A stretch of DNA of 42,960 nucleotides from a virus. Numbering within the stretch: the first letter of the stretch is position 1; every line of letters starts with the position of its first letter. Where the stretch lies: the IMG/VR virus record IMGVR_UViG_3300029578_000023, positions 1 to 42,960 of that record; one strand, written 5' to 3'. The notes beneath the pieces are model-generated. The model was not told the origin of the DNA. It made no database searches and saw nothing but the letters and a program-made list of their open reading frames with translations. Positions 6,900-19,225 of the stretch are shown here, in pieces. The translations under genes and the position numbers were made by a program.

Positions 6900-7727
6900 T
6901 CATTCGTACTGATAGCCATTGCTGACAAGGAATTGCTTCAAAAGGCGCAGGCGCTCGCGCGTATCGGTCACGCGGAACGACACCGTGAGGCGTTCGACCG
7001 CCGCCTGCTCCACGCGCTTCGGGACGACCTGCGGGGCCGCTGCGACGGTATCTCCAGCAGCGCGCGCTGCTGGAGATACCGTGTGGCGTTTCACGGCCTC
7101 GCGCTCCTCCTCGGCGCGGCGGTGACGCTCGTTGACAACGGAGATCGCAAGCGAGAGGTCGAGGTTATTTTTGTACTCCACCATGATCTCCGGCGCGTTC
7201 TCGCCCATCGTGCCGATGGTTTTCATGTCCTGCGCCACGCCGTCCACCTTTAGCTTGATCTGCTCCATGAGCTTCTTCGGCGTCTTGGCTCTGGCGCTCG
7301 CCATATCGACCTTAACGCCGGTCTGCCCGAACGAAAGGAAGTCGATCTCGTTGACCGCGCACAGCTCCCGAAAATAGCCCAGCAGCATTTCCTCGCAGCG
7401 GCTCTTGATCTCGCTTTCCGTCGCGTCAATCTTGGCTTTCAGGTCTGCGTCGGCGCGCTTGTACGGGTCGGCAATGCACTCACGGTAGACGGATTCGAAG
7501 CTGTCGTACTTCTCCATGATTGCGGCTTTAATGGCCTTGCGCTGGGTCTCGGCATCGGCAAACTCGCGGTTCATTTCGGCGCGAATGTTCTTCACGCTGG
7601 TTAAGGTCTCGTCGGTGCAGACAAGGCTCATTGCCTCTGCGACGCGCTGCTCCGTCTGCTCCTTCCGGCTCCTCAAATGCTCCTCGATCACGGGGAGTTG
7701 AGTCACTTTCATCAGGGTGTTATCCAT
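6900..7727 (-). CDS. DUF1351-like phage protein
   Basis: 275 aa, helical, partnered with a recombinase. Start MDNTLMKV overlaps the upstream stop. Confidence 0.5.
   Translation of the reverse strand: MDNTLMKVTQLPVIEEHLRSRKEQTEQRVAEAMSLVCTDETLTSVKNIRAEMNREFADAETQRKAIKAAIMEKYDSFESVYRECIADPYKRADADLKAKIDATESEIKSRCEEMLLGYFRELCAVNEIDFLSFGQTGVKVDMASARAKTPKKLMEQIKLKVDGVAQDMKTIGTMGENAPEIMVEYKNNLDLSLAISVVNERHRRAEEEREAVKRHTVSPAARAAGDTVAAAPQVVPKRVEQAAVERLTVSFRVTDTRERLRLLKQFLVSNGYQYE
7047..7080. repeat. Perfect 34-bp palindrome inside a coding region
   Basis: ggtatctccagcagcgc|gcgctgctggagatacc. Verified as self-complementary. Confidence 0.97.
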
Positions 7728-7893: not shown

Positions 7894-8006
7894 ATCATCG
7901 CCGAGACCGCGATGAGCACCGCCGCCAGCAACAGGCAGATACCGGCAAAAAGCATCGCCTCGTCTGCCTTACGCTGCTCTCTCGTGCGCTTGTCGTGCTT
8001 TCTCAT
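7890..8006 (-). CDS. Small single-TM protein
   Basis: 38 aa, MRKHDKRTREQRKADEAMLFAGICLLLAAVLIAVSAMM. GGGGG RBS. Confidence 0.35.
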   Translation of the reverse strand: MRKHDKRTREQRKADEAMLFAGICLLLAAVLIAVSAMM

Positions 8007-8158
8007 CGTCTGCACCCCCTGTCGATAAACGGCAGCAGATCACACAGCACCTTACACACCGCGCACGCACCGATAACGGCAAGCCCCGTCGTAAAGTCGC
8101 AGTCGTTGAGCGCGATCACCGCAGCGGCGATGCCGCCGAAAACCAGCGTATCAACCAC
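8003..8158 (-). CDS. Small membrane protein
   Basis: 51 aa starting from GTG after an AAGGAGG RBS: VVDTLVFGGIAAAVIAL ... GLAVIGACAV. Confidence 0.35.
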   Translation of the reverse strand: MVDTLVFGGIAAAVIALNDCDFTTGLAVIGACAVCKVLCDLLPFIDRGCRR

Positions 8159-9843: not shown

Positions 9844-10064
9844 GCGCCCTCCTTGCCCGCCCTTGCGGTCTGCGCGGCTTCCGATGCCGATCTGATTTCC
9901 GTTTCGGTCACGCCGTACATTCTGGTCAACGGTCTAATGTACTTGCTTGCGATACCATTCACACCGCGTTCCCAATTCGACACCGCGGAAACTCTTACAC
10001 GGAGTTTCTTTGCTACGTCTTCCTGACGCAAACCGGCATTTTCTCGAATTCCCTTTAATTCCAA
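9840..10064 (-). CDS. Cro/XRE-type HTH regulator (first gene of the leftward early operon)
   Basis: 74 aa, LRQEDVAKKLRVRVSAVSNWERG. TTG start 7 nt after AAGGAGGGG. Confidence 0.7.
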   Translation of the reverse strand: MELKGIRENAGLRQEDVAKKLRVRVSAVSNWERGVNGIASKYIRPLTRMYGVTETEIRSASEAAQTARAGKEGA

Positions 10065-10080
10065 GCGTTCTCCCCTCCTT

Positions 10081-10099
10081 ATAAAGTTCAGAACTTTAT
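10081..10099. promoter_or_regulatory. Palindromic operator ATAAAGTTC-A-GAACTTTAT
   Basis: Perfect 9-bp arms. Abuts the -35 element of the rightward promoter and the cro-like RBS. Confidence 0.6.
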
Positions 10100-10100
10100 A

Positions 10101-10129
10101 TTGACAAACGCAACCAACACCGCTATTAT
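10101..10129 (+). promoter_or_regulatory. Sigma-70-type promoter (TTGACA - 17 nt - TATTAT)
   Basis: Consensus -35 at 10101-10106, a 17-nt spacer, and -10 at 10124-10129. Points toward the nuclease/HTH operon. Confidence 0.7.
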
Positions 10130-10235
10130 GTAAGTGTCAGCCAACAAAATATCGGTTATAAGTCCGCAAAAACGGAAAATCCGTTGGGGGCTTGGTTTTT
10201 TGTTGCCTTAATTAAGTTCTGTAAGGCTATTATAG

Positions 10236-10250
10236 CCGATGTTTCATCGG
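10236..10250. promoter_or_regulatory. Palindrome CCGATGTTTCATCGG (operator or hairpin)
   Basis: Perfect 6-bp arms. An inverted near-copy lies 30 bp downstream. Confidence 0.5.
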
Positions 10251-10265
10251 CTGTCAATCGGTTAT

Positions 10266-10280
10266 CCGGTGAAACATCGG
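10266..10280. promoter_or_regulatory. Palindrome CCGGTGAAACATCGG, followed by ATTTT
   Basis: tgaaacatcgg is the exact reverse complement of ccgatgtttca at 10236-10246. Confidence 0.5.
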
Positions 10281-10329
10281 ATTTTACGCTTTGCACAATT
10301 TTTCCTTTCTCCTTTGTGAGGGTTTGTCA

Positions 10330-11142
10330 ATGGCACTATTTGATAAGCAAATAAAAAAATACGTCGAAGAAAACTTTTCTGAAAAAGAAAAAGCCCTCGC
10401 AGAAACCGAGCGCTCTGTCCAGCGGCATTTTGCTAAAAGCCGCGAATATAGAATTATGCTGCAAGATTATCAGAAGGAATTGCGTGAGCGTGATAGAGCC
10501 CTTTCTGAAAAAGAAGCCAAACTATCTAAACGCAAAGAGGATTTGGACGAATTCGAATCCACATTAAAGGCGCGAGTAAAAGAAGATGTTGTGCGAGAGG
10601 CCAAAGAAGAAAAAGCTACGTTAAAAGCGGATTCTATAAAGCTGCAAGAGGAAATAAAATCCTTATCGGCGAAAAAAGCCGGCCTTATGGCTGCGGAATA
10701 CAAAATTATAGACTGGGTCTCTCGGATGGAGAAAAAAGAAAGCGAAGTATTCGACGAAATACTTGCCGACGCAAACAAATTCCAAAAGTTCAAACTGTCT
10801 ATTGATGGGTATGAGTTTGAAAGCTACGTTGCCGATCTGCTTATAAAAAACGGCTATGAGAAGGTCGAGGTAACAAAAAAGTCGCAGGATTTCGGAGCAG
10901 ATATTCTTGCCGAGAAAACAGATGTGCGATATGCGTTTCAATGCAAATACTACTCAGGACAAGTTGGAATTGAAGCGGTGCAGCAAATTTACGCAGCAAA
11001 AGAGCATTACGATTCTCATGTTGCAGTTGTCGTTACAAACAGCGTGTATACAAAAGCCGCTAAGATTTTGGCAGAAGAATTAAACGTAGTCCTGTGGGAC
11101 TGCGAAGACCTCACGGTTTTGTCACAAAACAAGGATATGTAA
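10330..11142 (+). CDS. Coiled-coil protein with C-terminal Mrr-type (PD-(D/E)xK) restriction endonuclease domain
   Basis: 270 aa. About 150 aa of K/E-rich heptads, then GYEFESYVADLL ... SQDFGADIL ... FQCKYY ... VVVTNSVYTKAA. AT-rich relative to the genome. Confidence 0.7.
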   Translation: MALFDKQIKKYVEENFSEKEKALAETERSVQRHFAKSREYRIMLQDYQKELRERDRALSEKEAKLSKRKEDLDEFESTLKARVKEDVVREAKEEKATLKADSIKLQEEIKSLSAKKAGLMAAEYKIIDWVSRMEKKESEVFDEILADANKFQKFKLSIDGYEFESYVADLLIKNGYEKVEVTKKSQDFGADILAEKTDVRYAFQCKYYSGQVGIEAVQQIYAAKEHYDSHVAVVVTNSVYTKAAKILAEELNVVLWDCEDLTVLSQNKDM

Positions 11143-11144
11143 TT

Positions 11145-11597
11145 ATGCCTAAGAAATTAGATAGTGTAAGCCTTAACACAAGCTGCGTAAATTTAATTGT
11201 AAATTACTGTGAAAAAGCGGATATAAGCGAAGCGGCGTTTTCGAGAAAATTCAAGAAAAATAACGGTTGGGTAACTGACTTACGCAGAAGCAAAAATTTG
11301 AATTTGCCGTCAAAAGAACTTGCTGTGCAAATGTGCTTGACGCTCAACGTCTCCCCCGATGACATCCTCTTGCACGAGGGGAAGACCCCGGAAGAAACCG
11401 CCAAGTGCTTAGAGGATATCGAGACGGTGCGGAAACTGGTCGAGGCCGAGCGGATAAAAGAAAGCGCCCCCGATTCGAAGACCGAGGGCGAGGACGCGCA
11501 GCTTGCGCAGCTTATTGCCGGGTTTAATCGGTTGTCTCCGCAGCAGAAGAGCGCGGTGCTTGCTGTGATAGAAGGTTATCAACCATCGCAAGAATAA
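11145..11597 (+). CDS. XRE-like HTH protein (candidate prophage repressor)
   Basis: 150 aa, ADISEAAFSRKF ... LPSKELAVQMCLTLNVSPDDILL. ATG lies 2 nt after the nuclease stop. Confidence 0.55.
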   Translation: MPKKLDSVSLNTSCVNLIVNYCEKADISEAAFSRKFKKNNGWVTDLRRSKNLNLPSKELAVQMCLTLNVSPDDILLHEGKTPEETAKCLEDIETVRKLVEAERIKESAPDSKTEGEDAQLAQLIAGFNRLSPQQKSAVLAVIEGYQPSQE

Positions 11598-11661
11598 CAT
11601 TTTTTTGCTCTGGCGTCAGGTTGACAAAAAGTTCTGCTGCTTTTCTCGTTTGCTCGTCCAT
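11524..11661 (-). CDS. Possible 45-aa antisense ORF
   Basis: GGAGGG RBS then ATG 11661: MDEQTRKAAELFVNLTPEQKNVILAMVDNLL. Overlaps the end of the convergent gene by 74 nt. Confidence 0.2.
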   Translation of the reverse strand: MDEQTRKAAELFVNLTPEQKNVILAMVDNLLSQQAPRSSAAETTD

Positions 11662-11744
11662 AATTATGTCCCTCCAAATATTTTTGCAACGGGGCTATAT
11701 GTCGATTGTTGCACATAGCGGTGCAAGCATCAATATCTCGAAGT

Positions 11745-11787
11745 AAAGGCACTGCCGCCCTCTGCAACAAACGGCAGTGCCTTTTTG
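11745..11787 (+). terminator. Intrinsic terminator
   Basis: 13-bp stem aaaggcactgccg / cggcagtgccttt followed by a T run. Confidence 0.7.
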
Positions 11788-11950
11788 CAGCCAGCGGGAA
11801 GCGGTCGCCGCTGCTTGTTTTGACCATACTCCGCTTTACCTTACCACTTCAATACCAAGACTTTGCAACATGGCGGAATTCGACCGCGTTCGACAGGCCC
11901 ACTTTTGGCAAACTTATTGCTCGAAAACTGAAGAAATTAAGGTGATGTAA

Positions 11951-12343
11951 ATGAACATTCAAGAAGTGTGCAGAATCCGCAAAGAAGAACTGAAACTAAC
12001 GTATCAGGACATTTCTGACGCTTCCGGCGTTCCGCTGTCCACCGTCCAGAACTATTTTTCTAAATTGTCGAAAGCTCCATCTTTTTATACCGTCGTTGCA
12101 ATCTGTAAATCTCTTGGCATTTCGATCGATAAGACGTGCGAAATCATAGAACACTTGACGCCGACCGAGGAAACTTTGCAAGCACGGAATGATGAGTTGG
12201 AACGTCACGTTGACGCAAAGGCCGATACCATAGAGATCATGCGGCGCGGTGTACGCATCCGCAACGGCGTGATTGCTATAATGTTTGTCATTATCGTTCT
12301 GCTGGCTGCATGGTGCTTGTACATTGATTGGAGGGGGATTTGA
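11951..12343 (+). CDS. Membrane-anchored XRE HTH protein
   Basis: 130 aa. N-terminal HTH (LTYQDISDASGVPLSTVQNYFS), a coiled segment, and a C-terminal TM helix VIAIMFVIIVLLAAWCLYI. Confidence 0.65.
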   Translation: MNIQEVCRIRKEELKLTYQDISDASGVPLSTVQNYFSKLSKAPSFYTVVAICKSLGISIDKTCEIIEHLTPTEETLQARNDELERHVDAKADTIEIMRRGVRIRNGVIAIMFVIIVLLAAWCLYIDWRGI

Positions 12344-13671
12344 TGATAGCGGCATTGATGAGAGTGGCTTTGATAAGAGTGGCTTTGTATATCCGCGTCT
12401 CGAGCGAGGAACAGGCGCGGCATGGCCTGTCCCTGCAAGAGCAGCGGGACGCGCTGATGAGATATGCCAAAGCAAATAAAATGACCGTGGTGGGCATATA
12501 TGAGGACGCGGGCATATCCGCGCGGAAGCCGTATAAAAAGCGTCCTGAGCTCCTGCGGCTGCTGGATGATTGCGAGGCGGGGAAGATAGACATGATCCTG
12601 TTTATCAAACTCGACCGATGGTTTCGTAACGTCGCCGGGTACTACGACGTGCAGACGCAGCTTGACAAATACGGTGTGACATGGCAAGCGACGGAAGAAG
12701 ACTATGAGACGCGCACTGCGTCCGGACGCTTGAAAGTCAATATCATGCTTTCCGTCGCGCAGGACGAGGCTGACCGCACGAGCGAGCGGATCAAATTCAT
12801 CAACGACGGCAAGCGTGCAAAGGGGCAACCGGCAGGGTCTAAAGCTCCTTTAGGGTATGTCATCAAGGACAGGCAATACCAGATTGATAACGATACAGCA
12901 GATGCTGCGCGAGATATGTTCGCGGCGTATATTAGACTGCAAAGCGTGCTGGGCGTAAAGCGCTATATGCTCGAGACATGGGGCATTGACCGGGCATATA
13001 ACAAGTATGTCAACTACTTCCACAACCGGCTTTATATCGGTGAGGTGTACGGCATCGAGAACGCTTGCCCCGCCTTGATAAGCAAGCAGGATTTTGACAT
13101 TGTAAATGACATTCTGCGCCAGCGGTCGCAGCGCTGCGCGGGAGTTGAGACAGATCGCGTTTATCTGTTCTCCGGCTTGTTGCATTGCAAAGAGTGCGGG
13201 AAAACGATGCAGTCGGAAACCATAAAGCAGACATATATTTACTACCGTTGCCGGACGCGAATGCTTGACAACTCCGCGTGTCAGCACAAAAAGAGGATTC
13301 GAGAAGACGCGCTGGAAGATTACTTATTGCATGAGCTTGAGGGGATTGCCGAGCGAAACAATCGCTATTACAAAAAGGCAGAAAAAAAGCCCACGCAAAG
13401 CGCGGACGCGATACGAAAGAAAATGGATAAGCTGAAAACGCTTTATCTTAACGACTTGATCGAGTTGGACGAATACAAGAAAGAGTATACTGCTTTGAAG
13501 AAATCCCTTGAAGCGGTAGAGGAAAAGCCGAAAACAAACCTTGATGCGCTTCGAAATGGACTTGCTGAATATGGCACTTACTCACGGGAAGAGAAAAAGG
13601 AATTCTGGACGCGCTTTATCCGGAGAATTGACACAGATGACGACGGCGCGTTTTTTGTAACGCCGCGTTAG
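12343..13671 (+). CDS. int: Large serine recombinase (integrase)
   Basis: VALYIRVSSEEQ catalytic Ser motif, resolvase plus recombinase domains, and a Zn ribbon LLHCKECG ... YYRCRTR. The start could be 12343 or 12358. Confidence 0.9.
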   Translation: MIAALMRVALIRVALYIRVSSEEQARHGLSLQEQRDALMRYAKANKMTVVGIYEDAGISARKPYKKRPELLRLLDDCEAGKIDMILFIKLDRWFRNVAGYYDVQTQLDKYGVTWQATEEDYETRTASGRLKVNIMLSVAQDEADRTSERIKFINDGKRAKGQPAGSKAPLGYVIKDRQYQIDNDTADAARDMFAAYIRLQSVLGVKRYMLETWGIDRAYNKYVNYFHNRLYIGEVYGIENACPALISKQDFDIVNDILRQRSQRCAGVETDRVYLFSGLLHCKECGKTMQSETIKQTYIYYRCRTRMLDNSACQHKKRIREDALEDYLLHELEGIAERNNRYYKKAEKKPTQSADAIRKKMDKLKTLYLNDLIELDEYKKEYTALKKSLEAVEEKPKTNLDALRNGLAEYGTYSREEKKEFWTRFIRRIDTDDDGAFFVTPR

Positions 13672-13719: not shown

Positions 13720-13739
13720 CCCCCGCCTTACGACGGGGG
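13720..13739. terminator. Bidirectional hairpin between convergent integrase and accessory operon
   Basis: cccccg ccttacga cggggg, with T-rich flanks on both strands. Confidence 0.55.
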
Positions 13740-13744
13740 TGTTC

Positions 13745-14053
13745 TCATTTTTCGAGTTTCCGCATGACGCTATTATAGACGCGCTCGTTTACAATTTTCA
13801 AACTGTCCATCAGCTCATCAATGATCTCCCACGCCTTGTCCGGTGGCACATCAGCCACCGCCCGCAGGAAGTCGCTATCGCCATACACTTTGGCAGGGGC
13901 GGCAGAGTACATCATCGGTTCTGGCACGTTCGGTTCAGGTGTGTGTTGATCTCTAAGCGCATACAGTACCGCCAGCTTTTCATAGTTCGACCAGCTCGAT
14001 TCTTCGGTTTCAAGCCGTGCTATCCAGCGATTGATCTCGGTCTCGTCCAACAC
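13745..14053 (-). CDS. Accessory operon gene 10, hypothetical
   Basis: 102 aa, GTG start after a GGGGGGG RBS. LDETEINRWIARLETEESSWSNYEKLAVLYALRD. Confidence 0.55.
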   Translation of the reverse strand: MLDETEINRWIARLETEESSWSNYEKLAVLYALRDQHTPEPNVPEPMMYSAAPAKVYGDSDFLRAVADVPPDKAWEIIDELMDSLKIVNERVYNSVMRKLEK

Positions 14054-14069
14054 GGGGATTCACCCCCCC

Positions 14070-14423
14070 TTAGCCCTCGATCGTGTCCATGCAGCGCTGG
14101 ATTGCTCTGCGGATGCTGTCATCGTCCGCATCGTCAAGCATCTCCTGCAACTGATGCTTCATCTTATCCATTGCCCCGTCACGGGAGTAATGTCCACGGA
14201 CGTAGTGCGTGCTGCGTCTGCTTCTGCCGCGCATGTCGTACTCGTCGCGGCGGCTGGAATAGCCGTCCTCTTCAAGCGTTTCGATCTTGTCGATATTCTT
14301 GATGGTATCGGTCAGCTTATGCACGATGTCAAGGTCGCCCGCGCCAAGCTCGCCCTTGCGGGTGATCTCGTCAAGTTCCTTGCAGAGCATATCACGCAGG
14401 TCATACATAGATTTCATACCCAT
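14070..14423 (-). CDS. Accessory operon gene 9, hypothetical (helical ends, basic RGRSRRSTHYVRGHYSRD core)
   Basis: 117 aa. AAAGGAG RBS. Confidence 0.6.
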   Translation of the reverse strand: MGMKSMYDLRDMLCKELDEITRKGELGAGDLDIVHKLTDTIKNIDKIETLEEDGYSSRRDEYDMRGRSRRSTHYVRGHYSRDGAMDKMKHQLQEMLDDADDDSIRRAIQRCMDTIEG

Positions 14424-14439
14424 TGTTCATTCTCCTTTC

Positions 14440-14862
14440 TCAGCTCACGCGGTCGATTGTCAGGTTACTATTGGCAAAGCTGACCGCCTCCGCGCTGGTG
14501 TTCTTCGCTGCCACCGTCACGCAGCAGCCGCGCGGCACTTCCACGATGGCGCTGACATAGACGTTAAAGTAGTTTTCTACCGCAGCGGGCGTGACGGTCG
14601 CCGCGGCGCTGTTGAGCGCTTCGCCGTTGACAGCGAGCGCCGTTGTGATCGCGCCTACCGTTCCGCCCGTGGGGACGGCGATGTTTGCGCCAAAGCTCAC
14701 CTTAAAGCGCGCCTTGCACTGCTGCGTCAATCCGCGCAGGGTGACAAGTCCGCTGCCCTCGCGGTGGACGATGCAGGGCTTGCCGCAAGCCGCCGTGGAG
14801 ACCATCGGCACATTCTGCCCAGCAGGAACAGTAACAATGCCAGCGGTAACGTATTCAGCCAT
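14440..14862 (-). CDS. Accessory operon gene 8, all-beta-looking protein (possible BclA-C/C1q-TNF-like jelly roll)
   Basis: 140 aa from MAEYVTAGIVTVPAGQN ... ALAVNGEALNSAAATVTP ... NSNLTIDRVS. 8-nt overlap with the upstream gene. Confidence 0.55.
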   Translation of the reverse strand: MAEYVTAGIVTVPAGQNVPMVSTAACGKPCIVHREGSGLVTLRGLTQQCKARFKVSFGANIAVPTGGTVGAITTALAVNGEALNSAAATVTPAAVENYFNVYVSAIVEVPRGCCVTVAAKNTSAEAVSFANSNLTIDRVS

Positions 14863-15070
14863 TTTTCTTCTCCTCCTTTTTCCAAGTAGTTGCCGCAAAA
14901 GGGGGAATGAAGCCGGATGCAAGTACATCTGTATAGCTTGGCTTGAAGAGAGCGTCCGCCTTATGCAGCAGATCGGCATAGTTTGTAAGTTCGACCATGC
15001 TCATTTCGGACTTATCCATAGCGGCAAGATGGTCTACAAATTCTTGTTTCAGCTCGTCAATCGTTTTCAT
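14855..15070 (-). CDS. Accessory operon gene 7, hypothetical
   Basis: 71 aa, MKTIDELKQEFVDHLAAMDKSEMS. AAAGGA RBS. Confidence 0.55.
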   Translation of the reverse strand: MKTIDELKQEFVDHLAAMDKSEMSMVELTNYADLLHKADALFKPSYTDVLASGFIPPFAATTWKKEEKKNG

Positions 15071-15173
15071 GAGTTCAGTCCTTTCTAAAGGGGTCGATTT
15101 CGACCCGGTTAAAATGCAGCGGCAGGGCTATTGCCCCGCCGCGTTTGTCGTAGTATCGGCACGGGGCCGAACA

Positions 15174-15193
15174 TTTTGTTGACGTCAACAAAA
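15174..15193. promoter_or_regulatory. Perfect 20-bp palindrome TTTTGTTGAC|GTCAACAAAA
   Basis: Read directly. Lies in the 155-bp gap between accessory genes 6 and 7, next to hairpins at 15119-15142 and 15091-15106. Confidence 0.6.
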
Positions 15194-15225
15194 CATCGCC
15201 AACAAAAAGCTATGCTATGCAGTTG

Positions 15226-16005
15226 TCAGCAGCCGCAACCCTGATTGCAGCCGCAGCCGCAACCCCCGTACTGATAAGGTGCAGGAACCGCAAAAGAAGG
15301 AACGGGGCGCGGATTGTAATACGCGAACTGTGCGCTAACATAGTTGCGCATATCAAGCGTCTGAGCAGACTGAGAAGCCGCGAGGTCAGCAGCAAAAAGA
15401 CGCTGGTTCTGTTCAGCAATCTTCGCGTCCTTCGCAGCCAGTTCCTGCGCGGTCAGACGCTGGTCGATGCTACGGAAGCCGCAATTCATCGCGTCGATGA
15501 TGTCGCGGGTATTGGTCTGGAGCTGATTGCGCGTGTCGCAGCCCTGCGTCGCCATGTCATAGCGCACGCCCTCGATGCCGCGCTGGGTGTTGCAGCAACA
15601 CTCAGCGGCCTGCATCTGCATGGCGTTGAGCTGCTGCATAAGCGCCGCCTGCTGGTTGCTGCGGGAAAGCTCGGCCTGTGCAAAGCCGTTTGCCATCGCC
15701 ATGTTGGTGCCGTTGACAAGCTGCGCCTGCTGGTAAAACCCGTCGCAAAGACCCTGATTTACACTATCGATCTTGCGCTCGACATTAGCAAAATCAGAGG
15801 TCAGCACATAGCCGTCGACCACGCCGCCGGAATTGCCAGCGTTGTTGCCGAATCCGGTGCCCCAGCCACCAGCAAAAATAAACAGGAACAAAACAATGAG
15901 CCACAGAGCGCCGTTGTCGCCCCAGCCGAAACCGCCATTACCGCCAGCATTGGTGGGTGCCACAGGCATGGTCAGCATGGGAGCGCCGCCATCGGAAAGA
16001 GACAT
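15226..16005 (-). CDS. Accessory operon gene 6: Gly-rich/hydrophobic head, coiled coil with CCC motif, GC-repeat tail
   Basis: 259 aa. GGNGGFGWGDNGALWLIVLFLFIFAGGWGTGFGNN ... AAECCCNTQRG ... YQYGGCGCGCNQGCGC. AAGGAG RBS. Confidence 0.65.
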   Translation of the reverse strand: MSLSDGGAPMLTMPVAPTNAGGNGGFGWGDNGALWLIVLFLFIFAGGWGTGFGNNAGNSGGVVDGYVLTSDFANVERKIDSVNQGLCDGFYQQAQLVNGTNMAMANGFAQAELSRSNQQAALMQQLNAMQMQAAECCCNTQRGIEGVRYDMATQGCDTRNQLQTNTRDIIDAMNCGFRSIDQRLTAQELAAKDAKIAEQNQRLFAADLAASQSAQTLDMRNYVSAQFAYYNPRPVPSFAVPAPYQYGGCGCGCNQGCGC

Positions 16006-16033
16006 AAAATCACTCCTTAAAAATTTTTATCAA

Positions 16034-16047
16034 ATCGTGGCCACGAT
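16034..16047. promoter_or_regulatory. Perfect 14-bp palindrome ATCGTGG|CCACGAT in an AT-rich 143-bp gap
   Basis: The same gap holds hairpins at 16100-16115 and 16129-16150, and 4 copies of GTTGATT. Confidence 0.55.
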
Positions 16048-16148
16048 GTTGATTTTGCAAAAAGTTGAGCAAACACTTTGCTTAAATCTTGTTTATCGTT
16101 CAACCGTTTGGTTGATTCTTATTGCAACAAATCAACTGCGTAGTTGAT

Positions 16149-16355
16149 TTATTGCATCAGACTTTGAAACTGCTTCGCCATCTGCTGCAACTGGTTAAGC
16201 TGCTGCTGGTTGAGCTTACCGCTCTGCAAGAGTTTTTCGACCTCCGCTTTTGGGTCGCCCTGAAAATTCGCCTTGAACTGCTGGAACTGCTGCATCATTT
16301 GCATAAAGCCGTTCCCACCGCCGAGCGCACCGAAAAAAGGATTATTCATCGTCAT
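16149..16355 (-). CDS. Accessory operon gene 5, Q-rich small protein
   Basis: 68 aa (or 66 from ATG 16349). NNPFFGALGGGNGFMQMMQQFQQF ... QQQLNQLQQMAKQFQSLMQ. Confidence 0.55.
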   Translation of the reverse strand: MTMNNPFFGALGGGNGFMQMMQQFQQFKANFQGDPKAEVEKLLQSGKLNQQQLNQLQQMAKQFQSLMQ

Positions 16356-16785
16356 CGTCCTCCTTGCGCTTCTTCTTGCCTTTCAATTCGCCCACAAGCG
16401 CCGCTAGCGCGTCAAACTCCTTGCGGGTGACAAATTCCACGCCCTTTTCCTGTGGCGCTGTACGGGGCGTTTCTGCGCGTTCTACGAGGTCATAAATCTT
16501 GAGCGTCGGCTTGCCGCTTGCGTCGGACTGCTTGAGATACACAGTCGGCGCGGTAGAATCCCACAGAGCTACGGCAGAGTTGGGCGCGATGAGATACCCC
16601 CTCGCCTCCTGCTCGCCGTTGACCCATTGCACGCCGCCCTGTGCGATGGGGTTCTGTTGCACTGGCTGCGACATAGGCTGCTGTATGGGCTGCATCTGTG
16701 GCTGCTGCATCTGCCGCATCTGCATGAGGTTGTCCGGCATTGGCTGCGGATAATAGGGATTGAAATAGGGATATGCCATGTTCAT
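16342..16785 (-). CDS. Accessory operon gene 4: Y/P/Q/M-rich head, globular core, charged tail
   Basis: 147 aa. MAYPYFNPYYPQPMPDNLMQMRQMQQPQMQPIQQP ... VQWVNGEQEARGYLIAPNSAVALWD ... KGKKKRKEDDDDE. Confidence 0.6.
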   Translation of the reverse strand: MNMAYPYFNPYYPQPMPDNLMQMRQMQQPQMQPIQQPMSQPVQQNPIAQGGVQWVNGEQEARGYLIAPNSAVALWDSTAPTVYLKQSDASGKPTLKIYDLVERAETPRTAPQEKGVEFVTRKEFDALAALVGELKGKKKRKEDDDDE

Positions 16786-17165
16786 TCCTCCGTTTCTTTT
16801 ACCCAGTAATAAAGCGGGATTTCATTCTCGCTGTTCCAACTGTCATAGATTGTCCCGTCCTGAACGCACACCACATGCCCAGAGAGGGCGAGAATATACG
16901 TCCCGCGCGGGTGCTCGTCGGCAAACCTCCCGACCGTGTAGCAGTCGGGGCAGGTATCCGGCATGATATAGCGCCGATAGCCCAAAGACCGCAGATACGC
17001 GCCCCAGCAGGCATTTGCATTGGGTAAATCGCCGTCAAGGTAACCCTGTATGCAAAGGGACAAATACACCTCGACCCAGTCCTTCCCCGTTGCCTTGCAG
17101 ATCGCGCGCACGGTGCAGTCCGACACATTGCGCCCCGCGGGATTTGGGTTGAAATAGCTATACAT
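16782..17165 (-). CDS. Accessory operon gene 3: papain/C39-like Cys-His protein
   Basis: 127 aa from MYSYFNPNPAGRNVSDCTVRAI ... GTYILALSGHVVCVQDGTIYDSWNS. Cys, His and Asp are in papain-fold order. Confidence 0.55.
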   Translation of the reverse strand: MYSYFNPNPAGRNVSDCTVRAICKATGKDWVEVYLSLCIQGYLDGDLPNANACWGAYLRSLGYRRYIMPDTCPDCYTVGRFADEHPRGTYILALSGHVVCVQDGTIYDSWNSENEIPLYYWVKETEE

Positions 17166-17280
17166 GGAATAGCTCGGCAAAATACACGTACTGTCTCAGC
17201 TCGTCAGGGTCGGGGAACAGCGTTAAAATGTCCATTGCCATCTGCTCAGTAAATCCCAAAGCTAAAAGTCGGTCGTACAT
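17158..17280 (-). CDS. Accessory operon gene 2 (first after leader), 40-aa peptide
   Basis: AAGGAGG RBS then ATG 17280: MYDRLLALGFTEQMAMDILTLFPDPDELRQYVYFAELFHV. Confidence 0.4.
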   Translation of the reverse strand: MYDRLLALGFTEQMAMDILTLFPDPDELRQYVYFAELFHV

Positions 17281-17310
17281 CGCCGCACCTCCTTTGTTGT
17301 TTATATGGTA

Positions 17311-17339
17311 CAAAAAAACGGACGCTCAAAAGCGCCCGT
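17311..17339 (-). terminator. Intrinsic terminator 30 nt upstream of the accessory operon
   Basis: 9-bp stem acgggcgct / agcgtccgt plus TTTTTTT. The one non-Watson-Crick pair is G-U only in the minus sense. Confidence 0.7.
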
Positions 17340-17440
17340 AAAGTGTATGAAAAGTGCGTCGAAAACCGTCGAACAATTCTGCTTGCCTTTCCAAATGAAA
17401 CATGATATTTTAATTTTGCAGGTTCTTCCCGGCCTGCTTT

Positions 17441-17490
17441 TTACACAAAAGAAATTGCCTCACCATTTGGTGGGGCAATTTCTTTTTTCG
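17441..17490. terminator. Bidirectional intrinsic terminator
   Basis: 14-bp stem gaaattgcctcacc / ggtggggcaatttc with T runs on both sides. Spans the stop codon of the HTH gene. Confidence 0.75.
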
Positions 17491-17720
17491 TGTTGGTCTG
17501 ATGAAATTTTGTGGTACGCCCGCTGCCGGTATTTTTTCACCGCGTCAACGGACAGGTTGTGCTCCATTGCAACCTGTACGCAGCTTTTCCGCCGCACATC
17601 GCGCTCGATGATGCACGCCGCCTCTTCAGGTGGCAATTCGAGGGATAAGATATATTCGACGGCTCGCCGGGGAGCCATCGCGGATAACTCCGCCCGGATA
17701 CGCTTGTGCTGACTGTTCAT
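17460..17720 (-). CDS. Small sigma-70 region-4-like HTH protein
   Basis: 86 aa. PRRAVEYILSLELPPEEAACIIERDVRRKSCVQVAMEHNLSVDAVKKYRQRAYHKI. Confidence 0.6.
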   Translation of the reverse strand: MNSQHKRIRAELSAMAPRRAVEYILSLELPPEEAACIIERDVRRKSCVQVAMEHNLSVDAVKKYRQRAYHKISSDQHEKRNCPTKW

Positions 17721-17804: not shown

Positions 17805-18380
17805 TTACTTCATTACGGCGAGTTTTCTAATGAGGTCATCCCCATACTTGTACGCCGCGAGATAGTCCATCGTCTTATCCTCTAGCCCCGCGCGCTTTTT
17901 GAGCACCTCGCGGTAACTCGCCTCATACTTCGGGCGGTATGCGCCCAGCACAAGCGATAGCTTGCGCTTGCGGCGGTACACCCCGTCGCCGTTGGCCTGA
18001 CTGCCCGCCGTGCCGCTCGACGTGTTGCCCTCGATAGCTGTTACATACTGCCCGCTCACGCTCTCGCAGATGCCCGTATGGTCGGTCTTGACCTTCGTGT
18101 TGGGAAAGTCATAGATGAGCACATCGCCCGGTTGATAGCCCTTTGTGACCCACTGACCGTGCGCTTTCGCGTAGTTCATCAGCTCGCCGCAGCTCGCGGT
18201 CTTCCCGCCGCCGTAAAAGAGGGACTTATCCACCTGCTGAAAGCACCACCACACAAACTGCATGCACCAGTACACGCCGTCCACGCCGTACGCCTTGCCG
18301 TACTTCTGGCGGTTGCCCGGCTGCTCCACCGTGCCGATCTCCTTGCGCGCGATGGCAAGGATGTCTTCTGCTCTCGCCAT
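17805..18380 (-). CDS. Endolysin, CHAP/NlpC-P60-type peptidase domain
   Basis: 191 aa with YWCMQFVWW (catalytic Cys context) and DHTGI ... AIEGNTS. Confidence 0.75.
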   Translation of the reverse strand: MARAEDILAIARKEIGTVEQPGNRQKYGKAYGVDGVYWCMQFVWWCFQQVDKSLFYGGGKTASCGELMNYAKAHGQWVTKGYQPGDVLIYDFPNTKVKTDHTGICESVSGQYVTAIEGNTSSGTAGSQANGDGVYRRKRKLSLVLGAYRPKYEASYREVLKKRAGLEDKTMDYLAAYKYGDDLIRKLAVMK

Positions 18381-18382
18381 GT

Positions 18383-18592
18383 TTACGCCCCCTTGTCAAT
18401 GGCGTCCTGATTCTTCTGCGACTGCGTGCCAAAGTAGAACGCAATGATAGAGCTGTAGATCAGCATGAGCTGCTCGCCGGTAATCTTGCCGACGACAAAG
18501 CCGTAGATCACCGCGCCGGTGGCGGCGATCGTCACAATGCTCTTCACGCTGCACAGGTTCGCAAATCTCTTTTTCAGCAAATCGTTATTCAT
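18383..18592 (-). CDS. Holin-like small membrane protein
   Basis: 69 aa from MNNDLLKKRF, with 2 TM helices. ATGA overlap upstream. Confidence 0.5.
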   Translation of the reverse strand: MNNDLLKKRFANLCSVKSIVTIAATGAVIYGFVVGKITGEQLMLIYSSIIAFYFGTQSQKNQDAIDKGA

Positions 18593-18813
18593 AGTGTCGT
18601 ATCGTCCTTTCTGAAAATCTTGATGCCTGCCACAACGACAAGCTCTGTTGTCCATGCCTTAAACCAGCGTTCCGTCAGCACGTCGGGCGGCGGCACGCCG
18701 AGCGCCGCCATGGTGAGCGAGGCGACGGTGTACCACGTCAGGCTGAAAATGGCGATGGATATGTACCTGTCCCGCTTTTTCATCTTGCCCCAGTGCTCTT
18801 TCAGCTTTTTCAT
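18589..18813 (-). CDS. Holin-like small membrane protein
   Basis: 74 aa from MKKLKEHWGKMKKRDRYISIAIFSLTWYTVASLTMAAL. Confidence 0.5.
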   Translation of the reverse strand: MKKLKEHWGKMKKRDRYISIAIFSLTWYTVASLTMAALGVPPPDVLTERWFKAWTTELVVVAGIKIFRKDDTTL

Positions 18814-18926
18814 GCCATGCACCACATCCATAGTTCGCGGATGCCCTTGACGGCCGCCGCCGCGCCGACCAGCAAGGCCGCGCCCACAATGATGGCAACT
18901 GCCACCTCGGCAAAATCATCCATCAT
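18810..18926 (-). CDS. 38-aa single-TM peptide
   Basis: MMDDFAEVAVAIIVGAALLVGAAAAVKGIRELWMWCMA. Stop-start overlaps on both sides. Confidence 0.4.
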   Translation of the reverse strand: MMDDFAEVAVAIIVGAALLVGAAAAVKGIRELWMWCMA

Positions 18927-19225
18927 GCCACACCTCCCGAGATGATCCACGCCACAAACGCACCGACCAGCGCTGCAAGCAGCTTGTCCACGATGCTGTC
19001 CCACCGTTTCCCCGCTTTCCCCGTGATGGTCTTCACGTCCTCTTTGATCTCCTTGACGTCGCCCTCCACGGTCTCTTGTTTTGTGGCCAGCACCTCGACC
19101 GAGGTCACCAGCCTGTCCAGCGCCACCTGATGTTCCGTGAGTTCGTTGATTCGGTGCGTGTTGCTCTTGCATCGGCTTTCGATCAGCGCGATCGACGCGT
19201 CATCGTAGTGCTTTTCATTATCCAT
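18923..19225 (-). CDS. XhlA-like protein (coiled coil plus C-terminal TM)
   Basis: 100 aa. The architecture matches the XhlA lysis-associated family. Confidence 0.5.
   Translation of the reverse strand: MDNEKHYDDASIALIESRCKSNTHRINELTEHQVALDRLVTSVEVLATKQETVEGDVKEIKEDVKTITGKAGKRWDSIVDKLLAALVGAFVAWIISGGVA

Follow-up and report, generated by a model that had tools for sequence, protein, structure and literature searches.

The exclusion proteins HK97 gp15, T4 Imm and lactococcal Sie2009 are single-gene membrane proteins that have an N-terminal anchor and are encoded in accessory slots. Described here is a cassette of seven genes, designated B, C, D, E, G, H and I, from IMGVR_UViG_3300029578_000023, a temperate siphophage genome of about 43 kb that looks complete (hereafter the window, meaning the whole stretch of 42,960 nucleotides that was analysed), in which the cassette lies between the lysis genes and a convergent serine recombinase gene. 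Like the above-mentioned proteins, it includes a phage membrane protein, has lytic as well as temperate carriers and exists as diversified alleles; unlike them, it contains a jellyroll protein and four to five further obligatory partners, and no homology to them was detected. The cassette also resembles phage morons in its position, with the lysis genes on one side and the integrase or attR on the other, in its flanking hairpins, in having its own regulator and in being exchanged independently of the backbone. The difference from morons is that it is found in almost every member of its lineage, and in integrase-less phages too, as seven genes in a fixed order.

Other comparisons concern single products. 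The architecture of E recalls the lambda i-spanin Rz, in which a membrane segment at the N-terminus is likewise followed by a long helical part with Cys residues, and the E gene is usually located just 3' of the endolysin gene. However, E has neither a lipoprotein partner nor a signal sequence, its helical part is tentatively read as cytoplasmic, and there is no sequence similarity to Rz; moreover, the Clostridia hosts are monoderm, and the spanin pair needs a diderm host. G falls, by its predicted fold, into the jellyroll class of BclA_C, BxpB and ExsFA of the Bacillus cereus group, being of approximately the size of BxpB and stand-alone like it, but it is phage-encoded and lacks both the collagen-like stalk and the exosporium-targeting N-terminus of BclA, and exosporium loci have no counterpart of the E-family membrane protein that is always paired with G. 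B shares with Josephin, C39-like, Tae4 and NlpC/P60 enzymes an invariant Cys at the start of a helix, followed by His and Asp on successive strands. It differs from clan CA-type enzymes in its smaller size (127 amino acids (aa)) and in that neither the region of the window nor related loci contained a double-glycine precursor or an ABC exporter linked to B. A combination of these parts occurs in no known multi-gene phage system. The cassette is real and widespread, being carried by thousands of phages of gut Clostridia; the mechanism considered below is a proposal.

Conservation, mobility and types of the cassette

The sample used for the analysis of gene neighbourhoods included 80 IMG/VR loci and approximately 50 loci from species-representative genomes and was searched by tblastn and with family hidden Markov models. 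The order B-C-D-E-G-H-I was kept together in these ~130 phage and prophage loci, wherever the contig was long enough, and held even where the identity of G was as low as 41–50%. Two further small genes of the window, A and F, were variable and present in subsets of loci only, and the lysins, holins, tail fibres and integrases beside the cassette varied among the loci. A preliminary description of the window had pointed to an accessory gene set between the lysis genes and the integrase; the neighbourhood search run here confirmed that such a set is co-conserved, in the form of seven genes. Seven of the products match PHROG families (E = 2e-8 to 3e-56), all of them of unknown function, and these matches, together with the recurrence of the same order in more than 100 loci, indicate that the open reading frames (ORFs) are genes and not chance occurrences. 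All ten minus-strand ORFs of the preliminary description, with the sequences and ribosome-binding sites given there, were found again at 13745-17720, as were the overlaps between A and B, B and C, C and D, and F and G. The image of a tightly packed ten-gene operon was correct in these respects but had to be revised in others, because three spacers of 179, 143 and 155 nucleotides (nt), with hairpins in them, break up the block, the core consists of seven genes, and the outermost ORF, a helix-turn-helix (HTH) gene, belongs to the backbone.

The hosts named in the records are Oscillospiraceae, Lachnospiraceae, Ruminococcus, Lawsonibacter and Eubacterium sp. 14-2, although the assignment of a few bins is evidently wrong. 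Oscillospiraceae and Lachnospiraceae phages with the same gene order, G included, came from humans, mice, lemurs and ruminants. When clustered at 90% identity, the G family alone falls into more than 7,800 clusters, and at 50% identity into 654. In GenBank phages, tblastn with C, E, H and I had no matches outside uncultured gut phages, the Dulem and bajarodcaudo viruses and Ceridwen; the latter, Butyrivibrio virus Ceridwen, propagated on B. fibrisolvens DSM 3071, is the one cultured carrier. Full-text searching of the literature gave nothing relevant on the cassette or on DUF7841, a domain encoded in some of its variants. Naming the function of the cassette would annotate thousands of gut virome genes and could uncover a new way for the phages of Gram-positive anaerobes to deal with rival phages or with the envelope of the host. 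Additionally, divergent C-, E-, G- and H-like genes were observed on two contigs of ~139 kb (L118 and L134), the bins of which are labelled Methanobrevibacter and Bacilli and where neighbouring genes appeared by eye to be RuvC-like, dUTPase-like and NrdG-like; these contigs may belong to much larger phages.

The position of the cassette in the genome is not the same in all carriers. Most commonly it comes after the lysis genes and closes the late strand ahead of the integrase; in L304 and L305 no other prophage genes separate it from host genes. In Ceridwen, a phage without an integrase that has been observed in the lytic cycle only, the cassette is located between the lysin gene and the early XRE/antirepressor genes, and two more integrase-less layouts place it in the same way, before the early genes. 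The prophage of Eubacterium sp. 14-2 (L122) carries it between a MuF-like head gene and the scaffold/capsid genes, and in L138-L140 (1-5092) it lies directly 3' of the gene for a polyvalent protein of ~3,756 aa with LPD23 and MuF_C domains. When all proteins of the window were compared with the complete genome of Ceridwen, the proteins common to both were limited to B, C, E, G, I and one small XRE protein, and no common virion protein was detected; therefore, the cassette is an autonomous, horizontally exchanged unit. It was shown to be self-contained, mobile and allelically diversified, and to be better conserved than the backbones that carry it. Homing endonuclease genes inserted within the cassette were seen in three independent lineages (L008:8518-9312, L001:10614-11165 and L122:3429-3887); Ceridwen has acquired an HNH gene in this way, Dulem virus 33 a gene annotated as an endonuclease, and the prophage of Eubacterium sp. 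14-2 a gene that by eye looks like GIY-YIG.

Allelic types became evident in a sample anchored on the lysin, which consisted of 80 IMG/VR phages with an endolysin 83–98% identical to that of the window and provided 45 loci with at least 4.5 kb of downstream sequence. Some type of cassette was located downstream of the endolysin in 43 of these 45 loci, and the two exceptions have another genome layout, with tail genes after the lysin. Type 1, the full cassette with the order (A) B C D E (F) G H I, was present in 24 of the 45. Type 2 (L143, L146-L148, L153-L156, L158-L159, L161, L163 and L166) begins with homologues of C, D and E (hhalign, 96–100%), followed by another jellyroll, G2, and another helical protein, H2. 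Type 3 (L149, L165, L168, L173, L178, L182-L183, L187, L191, L195, L200, L202 and L213) begins with two small proteins that are unrelated, after which come an E-family protein (phrog_16490, E = 1e-7), G2 and then either H2 or a DUF7841 protein. The E2 and E3 proteins of types 2 and 3 belong to the same family as E. G2 matched nearly the whole Pfam BclA_C model (E = 4e-6 to 3e-3, 17.7–27.2 bits), the helical protein at the H position of types 2 and 3 is unrelated to H and has a weak Rubrerythrin match, and the DUF7841 protein that follows G2 in some type 3 cassettes was recognised with E = 5e-23. The constants of the slot in all types are an E-family membrane protein, then a BclA_C-like jellyroll, then a small helical protein, and C-D-E and G-H-I are interchangeable sub-modules. 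In the same sample the cassette type tracks the tail-tip gene set; within type 1, the cassette also adjoins differing fibre sets. Its presence in three types in 43 of 45 loci therefore speaks for a near-obligatory, diversifying function and not for sporadic conversion cargo, so that a reading as optional lysogenic-conversion cargo is not supported. A near-obligatory unit of seven genes that crosses unrelated backbones argues for a strongly selected function, which is unnamed in current phage biology.

The boundary of the cassette on the side of the lysis genes follows from the same comparison. The HTH gene (17460-17720, minus strand, 86 aa), the product of which matched Pfam Sigma70_r4_2 below the curated cut-off (E = 1.3e-4), precedes type 1, 2 and 3 cassettes alike. 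The 180-nt leader that follows it (17281-17459, minus strand), with terminator-like hairpins at 17447-17486 and 17318-17339 (terminator scan; inverted repeat), is 78–98% identical ahead of type 1, 2 or 3 cassettes (L141-L220, at ~7920–8100). Since both also stand ahead of the two other cassette types, the HTH gene and the leader are flanking backbone and not part of the cassette core. In other lineages this position is occupied by different small regulators of the ribbon-helix-helix or other HTH types. The leader had no Rfam match above the threshold; it behaves like a gate that is kept constant while the slot behind it varies.

Predicted properties of the products

All genes considered in this section are on the minus strand. 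B (16782-17180) was annotated as 132 aa and is 127 aa long from the ATG at 17165, the start used by its homologues. It matches phrog_3754 (E = 4e-35), and D21, C22, H102 and D113 are invariant in the alignment of 51 sequences. In its AlphaFold2 model (predicted local distance difference test score (pLDDT) 91, predicted template modelling score (pTM) 0.86) a helix starts at residue 22 and strands span residues 102-107 and 110-113. Foldseek matches of B in the PDB were weak and all papain-like (Josephin-2, Tae4, TssM and SpeB; best E = 0.16). The search of BFVD placed B in a broad family of small uncharacterised proteins from phages of Pseudomonas, Enterococcus, Sphingomonas, Caulobacter and others; entries labelled C39, Josephin and AvrRpt2 were matched weakly. 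No curated peptidase family, including Peptidase_C39, was matched by B in Pfam and NCBIfam, and a PDB profile search was empty as well. The papain-like Cys-His protein proposed in the preliminary description is thus supported by an invariant triad, a confident model and weak papain-like matches in the PDB, and B is predicted to be a papain-like Cys-His-Asp enzyme. At the same time, the idea of a dedicated protease was not retained: because its family is spread over unrelated phages and stands alone there, as in Bacillus Tsamsa-like phages, the early region of Geobacillus GBK2 and Lak megaphages, B is a generic pan-phage enzyme and not a protease specific to the cassette. In the phages of Gram-negative and Gram-positive hosts where it occurs elsewhere (e.g., Lak and Tsamsa-like phages), the family is annotated merely as "putative peptidase".

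G (14440-14862, 140 aa; phrog_20016, E = 3e-56) is the most conserved member of the cassette and has an invariant GCC motif. Its AlphaFold2 model is all-beta and of low confidence (pLDDT 62, pTM 0.53). With this model, Foldseek gave 20 matches at E ≤ 1e-3, nearly all of them to TNF-family, C1q-type and TNF-like Pgp3/lectin domains; EDA, 4-1BBL, C1q-like proteins, Pgp3 and the N-terminal lectin domain of BC2L-C were among the matches, as were BxpB (query TM-score (TMq) 0.65), ExsFA and the C-terminal domain of F-BclA. BclA_C is the Pfam family with the largest number of matches in the G family, namely 3 of 73 diverse members (best E = 1.8e-4), and G of the window itself had no match to BclA_C (PF18573, gathering score 38 bits). 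These results agree with the preliminary remark that G recalls the BclA-C and C1q/TNF folds. G stands alone as a protein of ~140 aa: the 150 listed representatives of the family are 72-196 aa long, the match spans the whole protein, and no collagen stalk or fibre fusion N-terminal to G was found among them. Modelling therefore identifies G as a putative stand-alone BclA_C/TNF-C1q-like jellyroll, which is probably a distant relative of BclA_C-type domains. Membership in the Ena proteins was not indicated by any DUF4183 or DUF3992 signal, and "Enas" was matched by one G-family member at E = 0.48; DUF4183 is the F-ENA domain (PMC12357932).

E (15226-16005, 259 aa) matches phrog_16490 (E = 1e-39) and consists of an N-tail of ~31 aa without K/R, a Gly-rich hydrophobic segment at approximately residues 34-52, a Q/N-rich helical region of ~200 aa and a Cys/Gly tail. 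The helical region contains an invariant CCC (residues 136-138) and the conserved C87 and C156. The tail, CGCGCNQGCGC, is Cys/Gly-rich but variable, conservation lying in the N-terminal and central regions. E is the only product with a hydrophobic window of transmembrane grade (KD19 1.96 at residue 34) and is predicted to be a single-pass membrane protein. The family average of 0.02 K/R per protein in the N-tail, against 0.52 in the C-terminal flank, weakly suggests that the helical part would be cytoplasmic. Comparison of 20 divergent E homologues with Pfam gave coiled-coil noise only. Repeated PDB matches of E to influenza HA2 were seen at E~2 and were regarded as compositional.

C (16342-16785, 147 aa; phrog_21718, E = 3e-32) has an N-terminal disordered head rich in Y/P/Q/M, in which a semi-conserved P-D-x-L-x-Q-L-R-Q motif is seen in the alignment, followed by a beta domain of ~55 aa, a helix and a K/E/D tail. 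D (16149-16355, 68 aa; phrog_22984, E = 5e-22) is a Q/M-rich helical protein that aligned with D2 of type 2 at 98% probability (hhalign). Both accompany E in type 1 and type 2 cassettes. In L046, the ORF starting at 7336 encodes a 218-aa C-D fusion, which is either natural or the result of an assembly frameshift; the fusion suggests that C and D might act together. H (14070-14423, 117 aa; phrog_28802, E = 2e-8) has helical ends around an R/S/Y/D-rich core and follows G in nearly all loci. I (13745-14053, 102 aa) is helical, carries a conserved GDSDFL...DELM motif, follows H in most loci and has a homologue of 30% identity in Ceridwen. The two variable genes are F (14855-15070, 71 aa), a helical protein without a PHROG match that occurs in the closest relatives and a few others only, and A (17158-17280, 40 aa), an acidic peptide with a ribosome-binding site and without a signal sequence, the stop codon of which overlaps the ATG of B. 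A was present in 15 of 115 loci, and A-like peptides were found in some distant loci.

The designation of the products as low-complexity, coat-like proteins applied to a part of them. The odd composition is limited to C (12% Q, 10% P), D (24% Q, 10% M) and E (12% G, 9% Q, 4% C), compared to a late-gene background of 3.3% Q and 1.4% C, and B, F, G and I are ordinary. Scans of the ten products against Pfam, NCBIfam and PADLOC gave nothing above the threshold, with a sub-threshold sigma region-4 match of the HTH gene product and scattered noise, and C, D, E, H and I had no relative in these three databases or in the PDB. Sequence and profile searches of the PDB with G, B, E and C returned noise only. 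In agreement with the preliminary description, no product matched a virion, lysis or replication family in the Pfam, PHROG and NCBIfam scans. All-vs-all comparison with hhalign found no paralogy within the cassette, a single C-D link being traced to one fused ORF.

Possible functions of the cassette

The reading that we tentatively favour, while holding it to be short of probable, is that the cassette encodes an E-anchored complex on the cytoplasmic face of the membrane, the target of which is the host envelope and the purpose of which is exclusion or egress. Because none of the cassette products has a signal peptide, they would be made in, and would remain in, the cytoplasm of the infected or lysogenic cell. 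E would insert with its N-tail outward and its long Cys-bearing helical part inward; G, expected to be a trimer by analogy with its fold, would dock on E along with H and I. The Q/M-rich C and D could serve the Gly-rich hydrophobic segment of E as holdases or as adaptors, and B may trim or deconjugate some protein target. The complex at the membrane face would then act on the envelope or on DNA entry or exit, either in superinfection exclusion or in egress after the action of the endolysin, and would build neither a spore layer nor a part of the virion. Taken singly, these roles are each rather unlikely: superinfection exclusion somewhat less so than an accessory function in egress or lysis, and any other envelope role is improbable. 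A bolder version of this proposal, which we consider doubtful, is that the cassette represents a new class of phage machinery in gut and rumen Clostridia, in which a membrane-anchored, Cys/metal-stabilised coiled coil would bear a BclA/TNF-like trimer and, served by Q/M-rich helpers, would act at the envelope as a multi-protein exclusion device or as a third lysis step for monoderm hosts, with C-D-E and G-H-I as interchangeable parts.

Several points weigh against an envelope-acting membrane complex. BclA_C/TNF-like domains usually work outside the cytoplasm, and to our knowledge the known exclusion proteins are the products of single small genes and not of seven-gene sets. The topology call for E rests on a weak charge bias, the model of G reaches a pLDDT of 62, and the BclA_C matches of the G family and of G2 are all below the Pfam threshold. 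B, which occurs without the cassette in other phages, may not act on cassette proteins at all. Furthermore, every database name among the homologues of the cassette is "hypothetical", so that no annotated homologue gives a function.

In most genomes the cassette closes the late operon, and in L122 it stands among the head genes. Both locations would also suit products that are made late and serve as decoration or armament of the particle; G would then be a trimeric jellyroll protein at a tip or on the surface, and E a fibre or anchor that is cross-linked through its Cys residues once the particle has left the reducing cytoplasm. We consider such a virion accessory unlikely. TNF-like jellyrolls are common at the tips of phage fibres and spikes, the Foldseek search with G matched the phi812 spike knob and phage tail complexes, and the absence of signal peptides, the near-universal presence within the lineage and the tracking of the tail-tip gene set by the cassette type in the lysin-anchored sample are all consistent with it. 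However, the cassette is common to phages without detectable similarity of virion proteins and stands beside differing fibre sets within type 1, terminator-like hairpins stand ahead of it and it has a regulator of its own, G was never fused to a fibre or collagen stalk among the 150 listed representatives, and E has a segment of membrane grade. The deubiquitinase-type and papain-like best PDB matches of B and the occurrence of the B family across many phage types speak for a cytoplasmic island for host take-over or anti-defence, in which B would be a deconjugating or processing enzyme and the membrane link of E would be incidental. The layout of a regulator and small unknown proteins recalls regulated anti-defence operons, the gene for a polyvalent MuF protein adjoins the cassette in L138-L140, and allelic diversification fits an arms race. 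Such loci usually vary in gene content, whereas the order of the cassette is fixed across two bacterial families; neither PADLOC nor Pfam gave a match, and a jellyroll together with a long coiled-coil membrane protein looks structural rather than inhibitory. The anti-defence explanation is accordingly given a low probability.

The presence of the intact cassette in the lytic, integrase-less Ceridwen, the host of which, Butyrivibrio (B. fibrisolvens), we take to be non-sporulating, is difficult to reconcile with the role in the spore coat or exosporium proposed in the preliminary description; in such a role, the products would reach the forespore from the cytoplasm of the mother cell and build or remodel a cross-linked, coat- or exosporium-like layer there. 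It is true that G is BclA_C-like and resembles BxpB and ExsFA, that a ferritin/rubrerythrin-like helical protein occupies the H position in types 2 and 3, and that many of the host families include spore formers, the cassette being the last gene set before host genes in L304 and L305. Signal peptides are likewise missing from coat and exosporium proteins, among which are Cys-rich and Q-rich ones and a papain-fold transglutaminase. Nevertheless, no coat, exosporium, Ena or collagen family was matched above the threshold, and no member showed homology to CotE, CotY/ExsY, CotJ, GerQ, Tgl, CdeC or Ena in Pfam and NCBIfam. G has neither the collagen stalk nor the N-terminal targeting region of BclA, and among the loci inspected the G family was found in phage contexts only. 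A sigma-E/K-like box is not conserved either: the sigma-E-like CATACA box upstream of A in the window was present in 5 of 95 homologous upstream regions. A spore layer is therefore regarded as improbable. The other suggestion made for the window, a protease-matured peptide system, corresponds to a ribosomally synthesised and post-translationally modified peptide (RiPP) or a bacteriocin-like product, with A or the Cys/Gly tail of E as the precursor cut by B. A small peptide gene directly upstream of a Cys-His peptidase and the Cys/Gly-rich end of E would suit such a system, but the cassette contains no modifying enzyme, immunity gene or exporter, A is not conserved and is absent from most loci, the tail is not the conserved part of E, and B is not a C39 peptidase by Pfam and occurs alone elsewhere. 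This explanation is hardly credible.

Genome setting of the cassette and minor features of the window

The late genes of the window occupy the minus strand between ~42.9 kb and the lysis block, and the virion genes encode, outside the cassette, a large terminase, a portal, a MuF-like minor head protein, a scaffold, a major capsid protein, a tape measure, tail proteins and a collagen-like fibre. Upstream of the cassette, the block for lysis includes an XhlA-like gene (18923-19225), holin-like genes and the endolysin gene (17805-18380). On the other side, a large serine recombinase gene (12328-13671; phrog_95, E = 1e-99) is convergent to the cassette and has a bidirectional terminator (13720-13739) in common with it, so that terminator-like hairpins flank the cassette on both sides. 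The host of the window phage was narrowed only to Oscillospiraceae-like metagenome-assembled genomes (MAGs), the matches of the capsid gene being to Clostridia at the MAG level.

The block from the lysis genes to the HTH gene (17805-19225, with XhlA-like, holin, endolysin and HTH genes) is 83–98% conserved across L141-L220. The phages that keep this block were observed to differ in the upstream tail-tip genes and in the downstream cassette type; being conserved between such differing neighbours, the lysis block looks like an exchanged unit as well.

Within the cassette, the spacer between D and E contains an inverted repeat with 15-nt arms (16123-16156), which spans the stop codon of D and may be an operator or an RNA hairpin, and a second, ATCAAC-N6-GTTGAT-like repeat (16099-16116). 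This motif, a candidate operator, is not significantly enriched, its observed count being reached in 9 of 100 shuffles. In the spacer between E and F, palindromes at 15083-15114 are candidate operators, and a GC-rich, terminator-like hairpin of 10 pairs, 9 of them GC, is located at 15119-15142 (minus strand).

Finally, positions 10001-12000 of the window form a low-GC island (41–46% vs 52–60% elsewhere) with plus-strand genes adjoining the recombinase gene. One of the products of this island, of 283 aa, has PHROG matches that are restriction-endonuclease-like, and the island is probably cargo separate from the cassette.

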